The notes beneath the pieces are model-generated. The model made no database searches and had not been told where the DNA came from. It saw only the letters and a list, made by a program, of their open reading frames with translations. The position numbers and the translations under genes were made by a program. Positions 11,522 through 16,980 of a stretch of 64,000 bases of DNA are shown in pieces. The DNA is from an uncultured delta proteobacterium (GTDB lineage Bacteria > Desulfobacterota > Binatia > JACPRU01): positions 128,001-192,000 of the forward strand of contig CAVUWD010000016.1 in NCBI GenBank assembly GCA_963745025.1, read 5' to 3'. How positions within the stretch are numbered: the stretch's first letter is position 1; each line of letters begins with the position of its first letter.

Positions 11522-11845
11522 TATCGAGGCGTTAAGTAGCTTTCGGACCCTCGTAGGTGGTGGAGAACTAGCGGGGCGAGCTTCTCCTCGGGGTTGGGCC
11601 GATGGACCTCAACACCCGGCAAGCCGCTTGGGCAGCTCGGCGACTCTCGTGTCGCGCGAAGACGACGTCGTCGGAGCTATCGCTCTCGCGGTCGATCGTG
11701 GCACGCATCGAGTCGATCGATTCGGGCTCGACGATCGCCCGTAAGACCGCCGCGGGCTAGGGGATCCGCTTCTCGACGGTCCTCGCCACCGGTGTTCCCG
11801 TAGCGGAGGACCAATCGGCTCGGTTACCCCGGCGTTCCGCCGGGG

Positions 11846-12415
11846 TCAGATCGAAGCGGCCTTCTGTGGGATCCTGCACGACGCCCCGATCGCGTCGACT
11901 CCTAGCGCGTAGACGAGCCGACCGTAGCCGATGAAGACGCTCGTACGCCAGCCGAGCTCGACGATCTGCTCCTCGGTGTAGTGAACACGCAGCTCGGCGA
12001 AGATCTCGTCGAACGGCGCTCGCTTGTGCTCGCCTGCCATCGCATCGGCGAGCTGCATCGCCGCCTTCTCAGCCGGGGTGAAGAGCGGACTTTCGCGAAA
12101 GTTCGGAACGGCGTCCACCATCTCGTCGGTCAAACCTTGATGCCTCGCCGAGGCATACACGGCACCCCTTCAAAGGGTGCACGCGTTGTGCACCGCCACG
12201 GTGTGGCGGACGAGCTCGGTCAGCTTCACGCTGAGGCCGTTCCCGTCGGTCATGATGCGCGAGTAGTAGAACTTCACGAAGTCCTCGTAGAGCGCGGCCG
12301 GGTGACAGAAGTACTGGATCCACTCCGAGCCACCGAGCGCATCGTCGCTCGCCTGAACGATCGCCTGGATCTCGGGCTCCATCTTCTCGTAGGGGACCGG
12401 TGCGACTCTCGGCAT
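11846..12415 (-). CDS. AhpD/carboxymuconolactone-decarboxylase-family probable selenoprotein (CTLU), in-frame UGA at 12170-12172
   Basis: ORFs 12170..12475 and 11846..12160 are in one frame: ...ELVRHTVAVHNACTL-UGA-RGAVYASARHQGLTDEM...; GGAGG RBS before the ATG at 12415. Confidence 0.88.
12140..12156 (-). promoter_or_regulatory. SECIS-like hairpin 1
   Basis: mRNA AUGCCUC-GGC-GAGGCAU beginning 13 nt after the UGA. Confidence 0.75.
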
Positions 12416-12438
12416 TGCGACCTCCCTGGTGACGGAAG

Positions 12439-13005
12439 CTATTTCGCTCGATCGGCCGGCGTGGGCAGCGGGCACGTCTTACCGATCTCGAGACCGAGCG
12501 TGTAGATGAAACGTCCGTAGCCGACGAACGTCACGATTCGCCAGCCGAGGTCGACGATTTCGGCTTCCGTGAAGTGCTCGCGCAGCTCGTCGAAGAGCTC
12601 GGGGCCAGCTTGTCGATGGTCTCCCGCGAGCACCTCGGCGTAGCGTACCGCCGCCTTCTCGCGCGGGGTGAGGAGCTTGCTCGCGCGGTACCGCGGGAGC
12701 TCGGCGATCATCTCCTCGGTGAGGCCTTGTCGCGCTGCCAGCGCGAACCGGGCACCCTTTCAAAGCTGGCAGCCGTTGATCTCCGCGACTTTCAGACGCA
12801 CGAGCTCGGTGAGCTTCATGTCGACCGTGCCGCGCGTCTCCGTGATGAGCGGGAAGTAGAAGCGGATGAAGGACTTGAACACCTCGGGCGCATGGGCGAA
12901 TACGCGCACGAACTCCGACCCGCCGAGCTCGTCGTCATAGTCGCGCATGACCGCCTGAAGCTCGGAATCGACGGCGTCGAAGGGCAAGTAACTGACGTGC
13001 GGCAT
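12439..13005 (-). CDS. AhpD/CMD-family probable selenoprotein (CQLU), in-frame UGA at 12760-12762
   Basis: ORFs 12760..13044 and 12439..12711 join in frame: ...ELVRLKVAEINGCQL-UGA-KGARFALAARQGLTEEMIAEL...; paralog of the neighbouring gene. Confidence 0.88.
12730..12746 (-). promoter_or_regulatory. SECIS-like hairpin 2
   Basis: mRNA UCGCGCU-GGC-AGCGCGA beginning 13 nt after the UGA. Confidence 0.75.
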
Positions 13006-13229
13006 GCGGATCCCTCTCTTGCGGCGAGACTTATCACCCGTCACCGATGGTCACAATCTCTTGTGAGGTCCGTGCGTATGGAATCATTACACCCCCGGAC
13101 CCGACGAGATCTCGCTCGCCTACAGCGAATCAAGGGAGCAACGCTTCGAACTCAGCGATCACTTCCTATCGGCCGATGGGTTCTCACCCTGGCAGCGGAC
13201 GTGCTAGGTCTGTGGCCGGGAGTCGAACA

Positions 13230-14213
13230 ATGCCAGAGCGTCAACTACGGATTCTCGAAGAGGGACAGGGGCAGTACCTGCCGGTCGACCCGGACGGCTT
13301 CCGCGATGCCACGGGGAAGAAGAGCCGCGCGCTCGTCTCGAAGCTCGTCAGCGCGCGCGAAGCGGTCGAGCGTTACGTCGCCGACGGCGACTACGTCGTG
13401 TGGGAGTGCAATTACCTCCAGCGCGGCCCGTCGGTGCTGATCCGCGAGATCGTCCGGCAGCGAAAGCGCCGGCTCTGGGCATGCGGCAAGTTCACCTGGG
13501 TGGCGATCGCGCTTCTCGTCGAGGCAGACTGCTGCGACCGCGCCGACATGGGCTTTTTCATGGGCGGCCCCGGGCTCAACCGAGCGGTGCTCGATGGCCG
13601 GCTCACCATCTACGAGTACAGCAACGTGGTGATGACCGCGCGGCTGCGCGCCGGCGCCATGGGCGCTACGTTCGTGCCGGTGCGCTCGCTCGGCGGCACC
13701 GACAACTTCCGCTACTCGGGCGCGAAGCTCATCGAGGATCCGTACACCGGCAAGCCCACCGTCGTGGTGCCAGCGCTGAACCCCGACGTCGCGCTGATCC
13801 ACGTCCACCAGGCCGACGTCTACGGCAACGCGCGGATCTTCGGTGCCGGCATCACCGACGTCGAGTCCGCGCTGGCGTCGAAGAAGGTCGTTCTCAGCGC
13901 CGAGGAGATCATCGACACCGAGGACATCCGCCACAACCCGGGCCTCACCAAGATCCCCTACTACGTCGTCGACGCCGTGGTGCATGCGCCGTTCGGCGCG
14001 TATCCGGGCGAGACCCCGGGTCGCTACGCCTCGGACACCGAGCACGTGGGCGAGGTCTTCCTGTCGATGCACTCCGGCAAGCTTGGCGAGTATCTCGAGA
14101 AGTGGGTGCGCTCGGTCGCCGACGATCGCGAGATGCTCGAGAAGCGGGTCGGCACCGCCAAGCTCGAATCGCTGCAACGGCGCTCGACGCGCAAGGAGGG
14201 GTTTCGGCCATGA
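13230..14213 (+). CDS. CoA-transferase subunit A (GctA/CatI-like)
   Basis: RAGAMGATFVPVRSLGGTD, VPALNPDVALIHVHQADVYGNA, VDAVVHAPFGAYP. Confidence 0.88.
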   Translation: MPERQLRILEEGQGQYLPVDPDGFRDATGKKSRALVSKLVSAREAVERYVADGDYVVWECNYLQRGPSVLIREIVRQRKRRLWACGKFTWVAIALLVEADCCDRADMGFFMGGPGLNRAVLDGRLTIYEYSNVVMTARLRAGAMGATFVPVRSLGGTDNFRYSGAKLIEDPYTGKPTVVVPALNPDVALIHVHQADVYGNARIFGAGITDVESALASKKVVLSAEEIIDTEDIRHNPGLTKIPYYVVDAVVHAPFGAYPGETPGRYASDTEHVGEVFLSMHSGKLGEYLEKWVRSVADDREMLEKRVGTAKLESLQRRSTRKEGFRP

Positions 14214-15106: not shown

Positions 15107-15231
15107 TTGAACGACATCGAGCTCGCCATCGCCGTCGAGCGCGCGGCTACGGCGCGGCGCTGCTTTTGCAATAAGCTTGCAGCTCGGGGCTCAGCCTGAA
15201 GTCGATCGCCATGGGGTCAGGCTCCTTGGAT

Positions 15232-16011
15232 TCAGGCAGAGCCGCCGTCGACCGCGATGACGGCCCCGGTCGTGAAGCTCGAAGCTCGGCTCGCTAGGTA
15301 GACCGCGGCCCCGACGATCTCCCCCGGCTCACCGCCGCGCTGCAGGGCGATCGCCGATTTCGCCCGGCGCTCGAAGGCCTCCATGTCCCAGGCCTTGCTG
15401 ATGTCGGTGAAGAATGGGCCGGCTTGGATGGCGTTCACTCGCACCTTGGGCGCAAGGGCGTGCGCGAATCCGACGGTCATCGCCTCGAGCCCGGCCTTGG
15501 CGGCGGCGTAGGGAATGACGTCCGGCGTCGGCCGCTTCGCCGCACCGCTGCTGATGTTGATGATCGATCCGCCGTCGCCGCGAGCCATGCGGCTGCCGAC
15601 CAGCGCGGTGAGGCGAAAAGGCCCTTTGAGATTCACGTCGAGCACCTTGTTCCAGAGCTCTTCGCTGACCGCGTCCACGCTCGGATAGACCGGGGACATG
15701 CCGGCGTTGTTGACCAGGATGTCGACCTTGCCGAAGTGCGCGTAGGCGGCATCGGCGAGCGCCTCGAGATCCTTCCACCGCCCGACGTGGCATGCCCGGC
15801 CGATAACGCGTCTGCCGGTCGTCTTGGCGATCTCCGCGGCGGCATCGTCGCAACTGTCTTGTTTGCGGCTGGCGATCACGACGTCGGCGCCGAGCTCGGC
15901 GAAGGCGAGGGCCATCTCGCGGCCGAGGCCACGGCTGCCTCCGGTGATGAGCGCGACTCTGCCCGTCAGGTCGAAGAGGTCGGTTGGTTTTGCGGTCTTC
16001 GATGGCGTCAT
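15232..16011 (-). CDS. SDR family oxidoreductase
   Basis: TGGSRGLG, NNAG, YAAAK. Confidence 0.93.
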   Translation of the reverse strand: MTPSKTAKPTDLFDLTGRVALITGGSRGLGREMALAFAELGADVVIASRKQDSCDDAAAEIAKTTGRRVIGRACHVGRWKDLEALADAAYAHFGKVDILVNNAGMSPVYPSVDAVSEELWNKVLDVNLKGPFRLTALVGSRMARGDGGSIINISSGAAKRPTPDVIPYAAAKAGLEAMTVGFAHALAPKVRVNAIQAGPFFTDISKAWDMEAFERRAKSAIALQRGGEPGEIVGAAVYLASRASSFTTGAVIAVDGGSA

Positions 16012-16227: not shown

Positions 16228-16980
16228 ATGAGGTATTCACTGCCGGAATTCGTACTGGCTTCCGGGGTTCCGGTCGATACCGTCCGCTACTATCAGACCC
16301 TCGGTCTGCTGCATCCGCCGCAGCACGAGGGGCGCAGCGCCGTCTACGAGGCCGCTCATCTCGATCGACTGCGGCTGATCCGCTCGATGTCGAAGCGCGG
16401 CCTGTCGCTCAAGGTGATCGGTATGCTGCTCAAGCGCGGCGGCGCAGGGCTCGAATCGGACCAAGCGTTGCTCACGGCGATCGAGGAAGAGGCGGCCGAG
16501 CCCTCGTACTCGCGCGCCGAGCTCGCGGCCGAGATCGGCGTTCCCCAATCCCTGTTGCTGTCGATCGAGAAGGCCGGGTTGGCCGAAGCACAGGAGCAGG
16601 AAGATGGCTCCACGCGCTACACCGAGTCCGACCTCAAGGCAGCGCGTGGCGCGCTCAAGCTCCTCGGATACGGCTTCCCGCTCACGCGGCTCCTGACGCT
16701 GGCGGTGCGACATCACCGCGCAACCCGCCGCTCGGTCGACGAGGCGATCGAGCTCTTCGACGCGCACGTCCGCAAGCGCAACGGTGCGCACGAGAATCCG
16801 GAGGACGTCGCTCGCGGGTTCAAGGAAATTCTGCCGCTGGTGACCGCCCTCGTCGCCCACCACTTCCAACGCCTGCTGATCAACCGGGCGCTAAAGCGAC
16901 TGAGGAAGAAGGGCGACCGCGACGCCCTGCAGGTGGCCGTCGAGGTGTCGGCCCGCACGCGGCTTGGGCTTCGCTGGTGA
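16228..16980 (+). CDS. MerR-family transcriptional regulator with two HTH-like repeats
   Basis: SGVPVDTVRYYQTLGLL...HLDRLRLI..GLSL; second repeat YSRAELAAEIGV...RYTESDL. Confidence 0.88.
   Translation: MRYSLPEFVLASGVPVDTVRYYQTLGLLHPPQHEGRSAVYEAAHLDRLRLIRSMSKRGLSLKVIGMLLKRGGAGLESDQALLTAIEEEAAEPSYSRAELAAEIGVPQSLLLSIEKAGLAEAQEQEDGSTRYTESDLKAARGALKLLGYGFPLTRLLTLAVRHHRATRRSVDEAIELFDAHVRKRNGAHENPEDVARGFKEILPLVTALVAHHFQRLLINRALKRLRKKGDRDALQVAVEVSARTRLGLRW

Follow-up and report, generated by a model that had tools for sequence, protein, structure and literature searches.

Probable selenocysteine insertion hairpins in two tandem AhpD/CMD-type genes of an uncultured delta proteobacterium

A 64,000-nucleotide stretch of a metagenome-assembled genome (MAG) from an uncultured delta proteobacterium (assembly GCA_963745025.1, contig CAVUWD010000016.1, positions 128,001 to 192,000; 'the window') carries two tandem genes of the AhpD/CMD type, here called A and B, in which an in-frame UGA is followed at a fixed distance by a small hairpin. 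Comparison of these sequences with their homologues makes it very likely, with a probability of about 0.9, that both hairpins are real bacterial selenocysteine insertion sequence (SECIS) elements and that both genes encode selenoproteins. This reading is favoured because the UGA of each gene occupies the place of the second Cys of the active-site motif, because the organism has a complete selenocysteine (Sec) machinery, because the stems covary among homologues and because the hairpin is absent from homologues that encode Cys.

A first-pass annotation of the window had described two hairpins of identical geometry, in which exactly 13 nt separate each UGA from a perfect 7-bp stem closed by a GGC loop, and this is correct in every detail, on the minus strand (Table 1). 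It had also stated that the stems differ while remaining paired: each consists of seven perfect Watson-Crick pairs, five of which differ between the two copies, all five being compensated. The sequence around the UGA (CUU-UGA-A[A/G]G-GGU-GCC) is indeed common to both genes, as claimed, but it is so because of paralogy; of 143 Sec-encoding homologues, 119 have Leu as codon −1, spelled in six ways, and codon +1 is highly variable. Over 186 residues the two proteins share 46% identity, and both exceed the threshold of the Pfam CMD family PF02627 (A 43.1 bits, B 49.4 bits, cutoff 23). Their active-site motifs, C79-T-L-U82 in A and C79-Q-L-U82 in B, place Sec where the AhpD/CMD C-x-x-C has its second Cys. 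The minimum free energy (MFE) folds of 56 nt include the hairpin in both genes (−19.8 and −22.1 kcal/mol for A and B), and the 43 nt from the UGA to 10 nt beyond the hairpin fold at −14.3 and −19.7 kcal/mol, respectively. The MFE folds also show a lower stem (GCC with GGY), which was rejected as a part of the element, being 65% paired in homologues with one-sided changes only and having an invariant Gly codon as its 3' side.

Since the genes are paralogues, the agreement in geometry between A and B is by itself weak evidence. The MAG (its contigs are given C-numbers, the window being C16:128001-192000) contains 102 perfect hairpins with a 7-bp stem and a GGC loop, counting both strands, and 120,917 TGAs, so that about 1.1 coincidences of a TGA, 13 nt and such a hairpin are expected over 11,292,060 positions. 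Four were found. Three of these are the in-frame UGAs of CMD-family genes, namely A, B and a paralogue at C16:576381; the fourth, at C9:66753, lies out of frame within an unrelated gene and was set aside as a chance match. What goes decisively beyond chance in these sequence comparisons is the covariation among homologues.

Homologues were collected from 40 relatives, a species-level genome collection (66 loci), metagenome contigs (63 loci) and one 'Gammaproteobacteria' order, with a match in 32 of its 81 genomes. From each locus the DNA flanking the codon that aligns with U82 was taken, and removal of identical contexts left 175 sequences, with TGA at this codon in 143, TGC or TGT in 31 and another codon in one. 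The exact geometry of 13 nt, 7 bp and GGC is present in 97 of the 143 Sec forms and in none of the 31 Cys forms. Allowing one broken pair (at least six of seven pairs plus GGC) raises the Sec count to 107 and leaves the Cys count at zero, while any contiguous hairpin of at least 6 bp with a G early in a loop of 3–5 nt is found in 118 Sec forms and one Cys form. The first-pass annotation had set two outcomes against its own proposal: absence of the motif from orthologues and other selenoprotein genes, or equal presence in Cys-encoding orthologues. The hairpin is neither missing from orthologues nor equally frequent in Cys forms (other selenoprotein genes are treated below), and its SECIS assignment gains from these counts as well as from the covariation.

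Among the 97 strict cases there are 17 different, perfectly paired stem sequences. When 59 Sec sequences are aligned without gaps, 87.4% of the cells are paired, compared with 40–52% when the 3' partner is slid by 1–3 columns, and at each of the seven pairs both partners vary. A covariation score of 0.583 was obtained; shuffled alignments have a mean of 0.219, and none of 500 shuffles reached the observed value. When the same structure is imposed on 29 Cys sequences, 32.5% of the cells are paired and the covariation signal is absent. RNAalifold, with no structure supplied, predicts six of the seven pairs, all with compensatory changes.

The close relatives of the two genes fit this pattern. 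Orthologues of gene B (65–90% identity) have one in-frame TGA each, as do those of gene A in four genomes (G001, G004, G005 and G006), and the gene-A type retains an identical hairpin or compensated variants of it. In a close Cys orthologue (L209) the codon is TGC, three of the seven pairs can form and the 'loop' is CGC; its product is 86% identical to a public Cys-form protein (P0004), which is itself 65% identical to gene B. In the 'Gammaproteobacteria' order the two types have diverged. The gene-A type keeps the 13-nt spacer, 7-bp stem and GGC loop, sometimes with one mismatch, whereas in the gene-B type of the same genomes the hairpin lies 3 nt nearer to the UGA and has a tetraloop (10 nt, 7 bp, then GGUC or AGUU). 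The wider tetraloop group, in which AGGU also occurs, comprises loci L170, L176, L180, L182-L183, L210-L226 and L235, from 'Gammaproteobacteria' MAGs and metagenome contigs. As a separate observation, six metagenome loci (L185-L189 and L192) have [S/A]-A-K-P-U in place of C-x-x-U, so that the partner Cys, normally three residues ahead of Sec, is missing, with the 13-nt, 7-bp, GGC hairpin intact.

Several points weigh against the SECIS reading or limit the force of the evidence for it. The 56-nt folds are only modestly more stable than shuffled sequences (z = −2.1 and −1.6), and an Rfam scan of 11700..13200 at E values up to 10 gave no match overlapping either hairpin, its four weak matches lying elsewhere and far below gathering scores. 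The mean MFE of the 45 nt downstream is nearly the same for Sec forms (−14.9 kcal/mol) and Cys forms (−14.2 kcal/mol), so that only the position-specific hairpin separates them, and total energy was dropped as a criterion. Sixty-five of the 97 strict cases use just two stem sequences, 25 of the 143 Sec forms have only an interrupted hairpin at the same place and, because the sequences are related, there are fewer independent events than the cell counts imply. Most of the Cys controls are distant (26–42% identity). A first metagenome scan with one Cys-clade protein as query gave zero relatives, and a second, with an alignment as query, gave 63 loci; the 53 that could be used and were not duplicates are all TGA forms. 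Close Cys-clade DNA therefore comes from one genome (L209), beside a more distant Cys form (L208). Finally, the genome is an uncultured MAG, 92.65% complete and with 7.6% contamination.

The alternatives that would deny the hairpins a role as RNA, or the UGAs a role as Sec codons, have to be measured against this. The stem lies entirely within coding sequence, and it might be a by-product of a conserved peptide (F/Y-A-x-A-x-x) with no selection on the RNA. It begins at the second base of codon +5, its arms being drawn from codons +5 to +7 and +8 to +10; the loop consists of the wobble base of codon +7 (G) and the first two bases of codon +8, and the 3' arm of the last base of codon +8 followed by codons +9 and +10. 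Nearly all Sec forms have Ala (GCN) as codon +8, as do 23 of the 31 Cys forms, so the GC of the loop is protein-coded. Against a by-product, the stem is missing from Cys homologues that share this Ala, the wobble base that forms the first loop position is G in 111 of the 143 Sec forms but in only eight of the 31 Cys forms, and double changes keep the 17 stems perfectly paired while replacing the residues encoded by both arms. Because the stem is built from codons +5 to +10, the amino acids encoded there covary with the RNA pairing: residues +9 and +10 vary (AR, RQ, GQ, KQ, RH, VQ, RR and others) in step with the 5' arm, and here, therefore, it is the RNA that constrains the protein. A pure by-product of the peptide is thus very improbable. 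It is harder still to credit that the UGAs are real stops, leaving two short open reading frames (ORFs) or a pseudogene, or that UGA has been reassigned to another amino acid. Public gene calls may seem to say so, as they include, next to a few full-length Cys forms, many separate C-terminal fragments of about 104 residues starting past the UGA (P0016-P0102, named 'hypothetical protein' or 'alkylhydroperoxidase family enzyme') and four full-length entries (P0012-P0015) that read W in place of Sec, presumably because a code with TGA as Trp was applied. Yet 143 distinct sequences have the TGA at exactly the C-x-x-C position, homology runs on through it, and within the window's first 27 kb TGA is also the stop of 10 of 17 other confident ORFs, gene A included, so it is not reassigned. 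Moreover, the organism has dedicated Sec machinery. In this MAG of 5.65 Mb (20 contigs, 65.9% G+C), whose nearest relatives in the genome collection are labelled Candidatus Binatia or Binatota, with older labels of Deltaproteobacteria from groundwater, selA, selB and selD form one minus-strand cluster (C20:20417-25012) and all score above curated cutoffs (selB 397 bits with a cutoff of 242, selA 571 bits, selD 385 bits). SelB has the winged-helix domains SelB-wing_2 and SelB-wing_3, and a tRNA-Sec with anticodon TCA is located on C15. SelD is itself a selenoprotein (K-A-A-G-U-A-A-K) with one in-frame TGA.

If the hairpins are SECIS elements, there is the further question of whether their geometry is that of the lineage, as the first-pass annotation had suggested in proposing a lineage-specific consensus with which the selenoproteome could be mined. 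This is very unlikely. Candidates were sought as in-frame TGAs with coding-type G+C on both sides and a downstream hairpin, followed by Pfam and NCBIfam comparison, with filters that were ad hoc and a search that was not exhaustive. The MAG contains at least 17 well-supported selenoprotein genes and one further candidate, described below, making 18: five of the CMD family, five PrdB/GrdB-like (of U-P-V-C-H-Q type), UGSC, a WAxxUGC ResA-like protein, a DsbA-like protein, a PrxQ-like peroxiredoxin (G-U-T), a Prx-like protein (W-U-P-Y-C), a C-GCAxxG-C-C protein and SelD. There is some appearance of a common style. The SelD hairpin also has a GGC triloop, and a perfect 6–8-bp stem with a G[G/U]N triloop, the loop beginning 17–22 nt after the UGA, is present at 11 of the 18 UGAs, or at 10 if SelD, with its two G-U pairs, is left out. 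However, the exact geometry occurs at only three of the 18, all within a single CMD subfamily (A, B and the paralogue at C16:576381). Taken together the 18 hairpins are diverse, with spacers of 9–16 nt, stems of 6–8 bp, loops starting 17–23 nt after the UGA and loop sequences that include GGC, GUC, GUG, GUA, GGAC, GGUC and GGUCG; one Prx-like gene has a 5-nt spacer, its best hairpin being outside the bacterial SECIS (bSECIS) model.

The means of mining that the annotation had put forward return the CMD family and little else. The genome scan for the strict motif gave the four matches already mentioned, and the SelD SECIS was not among them, having instead a 9-nt spacer and an 8-bp stem. A covariance model built on the 59-sequence alignment retrieved genes A and B and three other CMD genes (E values 7e-12 to 4e-5, and thus below 1e-4) and nothing else below E = 0.09 in the genome, the PrdB-like, Prx, DsbA, UGSC and SelD genes being unmatched. 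The relaxed triloop motif (G[G/U]N, stem of at least 6 bp) follows 211 TGAs genome-wide, a rate of 0.174% that is at the background level of 0.170% for all trinucleotides. Conversely, the same protein family keeps the exact geometry in MAGs labelled Methylomirabilota, Nitrospinota, Alphaproteobacteria and Gammaproteobacteria, while the gene-B type of the 'Gammaproteobacteria' order departs from it, and the general features of the hairpins are simply those of the published bSECIS model. The geometry is therefore a trait of a CMD protein subfamily and not of the Candidatus Binatia lineage, and structure alone cannot mine the selenoproteome.

Some other loci came up in the search for in-frame TGAs. 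Matches to PF00384, sought for a Sec-containing formate dehydrogenase, have internal TGAs on C16, C7 and C13; a clean frame with a single UGA was not found in the C16:401800-404800 region, the one that was read. A read-through candidate at C16:845458 looks like two adjacent genes, for an alpha/beta-hydrolase and then a luciferase-like protein, and was rejected as a selenoprotein. Units of about 55 and 66 codons, arranged in tandem and all with an in-frame TGA, are present at C6:574512-575727, C11:41929-43002 and C11:515791-517565. The frame (e.g. ...A-A-W-H-U-S-G-A-A-Q...) has a coding-like G+C pattern and no Pfam match, and is probably a non-coding frame of repeat proteins.

The eighteenth candidate is a gene for an FG-GAP-repeat/UnbV_ASPIC protein (L133, C10:273621-276167, minus strand) with an in-frame TGA at C10:274205, between the FG-GAP repeats and the ASPIC domain (D-D-V-U-M-D-M-F-E-G). 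After the TGA come 14 nt, a stem of 6–7 bp and a GGUC loop. The position of the TGA is conserved at nine loci in seven genomes, and in a 36%-identical paralogue in an eighth genome (loci L238-L246 and L254). The single homologue without the TGA has Phe there, and no Cys homologue was seen. No NCBIfam family matched the protein, a literature search on selenoproteins and FG-GAP gave no relevant paper, and FG-GAP, ASPIC, CRTAC1, VCBS and UnbV are not mentioned in a 2026 review (PMC13188914). On its sequence and conservation, the gene may represent an undescribed selenoprotein family.

The products of A and B would be redox proteins of about 190 residues with the AhpD/CMD fold, in which the active-site C-x-x-C has been turned into C-x-x-U. 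Each internal UGA would be recoded as Sec by means of the 17-nt hairpin in the coding sequence, with seven base pairs and a GGC triloop, the loop beginning 20 nt after the UGA. By analogy with E. coli and Moorella, SelB in complex with GTP and Sec-tRNA(Sec) would bind the apical loop through its C-terminal winged-helix domains. The bound complex would be kept at the right distance for delivery of Sec-tRNA when the UGA is in the A site of the ribosome, outcompeting release factor 2. SelB binding, Sec insertion and the redox function of both proteins are inferred.

A wider reading in three parts can be put forward, which as a whole is possible but doubtful. A minimal 17-nt hairpin that has no bulge and ends in a G[G/U]N triloop may be a sufficient SECIS in the organisms that carry the family, Binatia foremost. 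The loop is anchored on an Ala codon already present in Cys homologues, and for this reason the switch from Cys to Sec may need only TGY to become TGA together with stem-building changes in six flanking codons. Lastly, the selenoproteome of Binatia may be large and may include the candidate FG-GAP/ASPIC family; no paper on Binatia with selenocysteine was found in the literature searched, supplements being outside its scope. If this reading is true, the CMD subfamily offers a natural series for the birth and drift of a SECIS element, for example from the 13-nt spacer with GGC to the 10-nt spacer with GGUC or AGUU.

Table 1. Features of the two predicted selenoprotein genes (positions in the window; genes translated with TGA = U)
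Feature	Position	Strand	Details
Gene B	12439..13005	−	188 codons; ATG 13005; TAG 12441..12439
Gene B Sec codon UGA	12760..12762	−	residue 82; aligned to second Cys of C-x-x-C in TGC/TGT homologues
Gene B predicted SECIS hairpin	12730..12746	−	UCGCGCU-GGC-AGCGCGA; starts 13 nt after UGA; bare fold −9.7 kcal/mol
Gene B hairpin parts		−	5' arm 12746..12740; loop 12739..12737; 3' arm 12736..12730
Shine-Dalgarno-like AGGGAGG	12421..12427	−	ahead of gene A, within the 23-nt A/B gap; read from sequence
Gene A	11846..12415	−	189 codons; ATG 12415; TGA 11848..11846
Gene A Sec codon UGA	12170..12172	−	residue 82
Gene A predicted SECIS hairpin	12140..12156	−	AUGCCUC-GGC-GAGGCAU; starts 13 nt after UGA; bare fold −8.5 kcal/mol
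Gene A hairpin parts		−	spacer 12169..12157; 5' arm 12156..12150; loop 12149..12147; 3' arm 12146..12140

A and B, 23 nt apart, are probably co-transcribed; a scan of 11600..13300 gave no promoter- or terminator-like site. Among the relatives examined, only a member of the same genus (G001) shares the tandem order, and in G006 the two genes are adjacent but divergent. Directly after the stop UGA of gene A there is a perfect 7-bp hairpin, CCCCGGC-GGAAC-GCCGGGG (11827-11845, minus strand). Its loop begins 7 nt past this stop, too near for a SECIS, and it was not called by the terminator scan because it has no T-run; this stem-loop may have a stabilising or terminating role. The neighbouring genes encode a protein of the CoA-transferase family (13047-14213, plus strand, divergent from gene B), a short-chain dehydrogenase (15232-16011, minus strand) and a MerR-family regulator (16228-16980, plus strand), and no functional link between these neighbours and the selenoprotein pair is evident.

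The immediate value of these results is for annotation, as both genes and most of more than 140 relatives can be given as full-length predicted selenoprotein genes, whereas the public gene calls for them are mostly split or mistranslated. The family also provides an unusually clean set for the study of bacterial SECIS covariation, with 17 stems in a fixed frame, and carries the lesson that a hairpin geometry common to paralogues should not be extended to a lineage. What is known of Sec decoding is unchanged by this case, since both the type of signal and the type of selenoprotein were already known.

We know of no solved structure of a Sec form of the CMD family. The solved sequences closest to the subfamily profile are those of PA0269 from Pseudomonas aeruginosa (PDB 2ijc/2o4d; E = 2e-18), in which a C-x-x-C is aligned to the C-x-x-U of A and B. 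PA0269 and related CMD structures are Cys proteins of about 145 residues that span only positions 40-166 of the profile.

In the E. coli fdhF mRNA, the C-terminal winged-helix domains of SelB recognise the apical region of a hairpin that lies 3' of the UGA; the element is about 40 nt long with a bulged U, and a minimal upper stem-loop of about 17 nt is reported to be enough for SelB binding. The hairpins of A and B differ from it in having no bulge. The bSECIS model of Zhang and Gladyshev, as given in PMC13188914, places the hairpin in the ORF just 3' of the UGA, with a loop of 3–9 nt, an upper stem of 4–16 bp, a G at one or both of the first two loop positions, 16–37 nt between the UGA and the apical loop and an MFE at or below −7.5 kcal/mol. 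The A and B hairpins agree with it in all four constraints: a 3-nt loop on 7 bp, the GGC sequence, a distance of 13 + 7 = 20 nt, and the bare-fold energies in Table 1. They belong at the small, rigid end of this range, with seven unbroken base pairs, a loop of three nucleotides, no bulge and a spacing that is fixed in 97 sequences, and none of their features falls outside the model.

Selenoproteins of C-x-x-U type were described in the 2005 Sargasso Sea survey (PMC1088965), which lists an AhpD-like family with 27 sequences and a 'CMD domain-containing' family with four; both are listed again in PMC13188914. Those families resemble A and B in their fold, in Sec at the second position of C-x-x-C, in widespread Cys homologues and in a SECIS with a small, G-containing loop. 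Profile comparison nevertheless keeps A and B apart from the curated families. Against TIGR01926, the AhpD-like 'peroxidase-related enzyme', they score 31.6 and 44.1 bits, respectively, below the cutoff of 81.8, and against NF041047 they score 18–21 bits, below a cutoff of 110. AhpD typically has a His four residues after the second Cys; A and B lack it and have V or F at +4. Their best NCBIfam match is NF053654, the 'YciW-related (seleno)protein' GroundWater_YciW, with 62.3 bits for A and 71.1 for B against a cutoff of 310. Two other genes of the MAG score highest against this model, one on C12 (UGA at 15111) near the cutoff, with 294 bits, and one on C19 with 110 bits. These differ from A and B in their SECIS, which has a spacer of 11–12 nt, a stem of 6–7 bp and a GUC or GUG loop. 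Thus, because they fall below the curated NCBIfam cutoffs, A and B form a separate subfamily of a known kind of selenoprotein.

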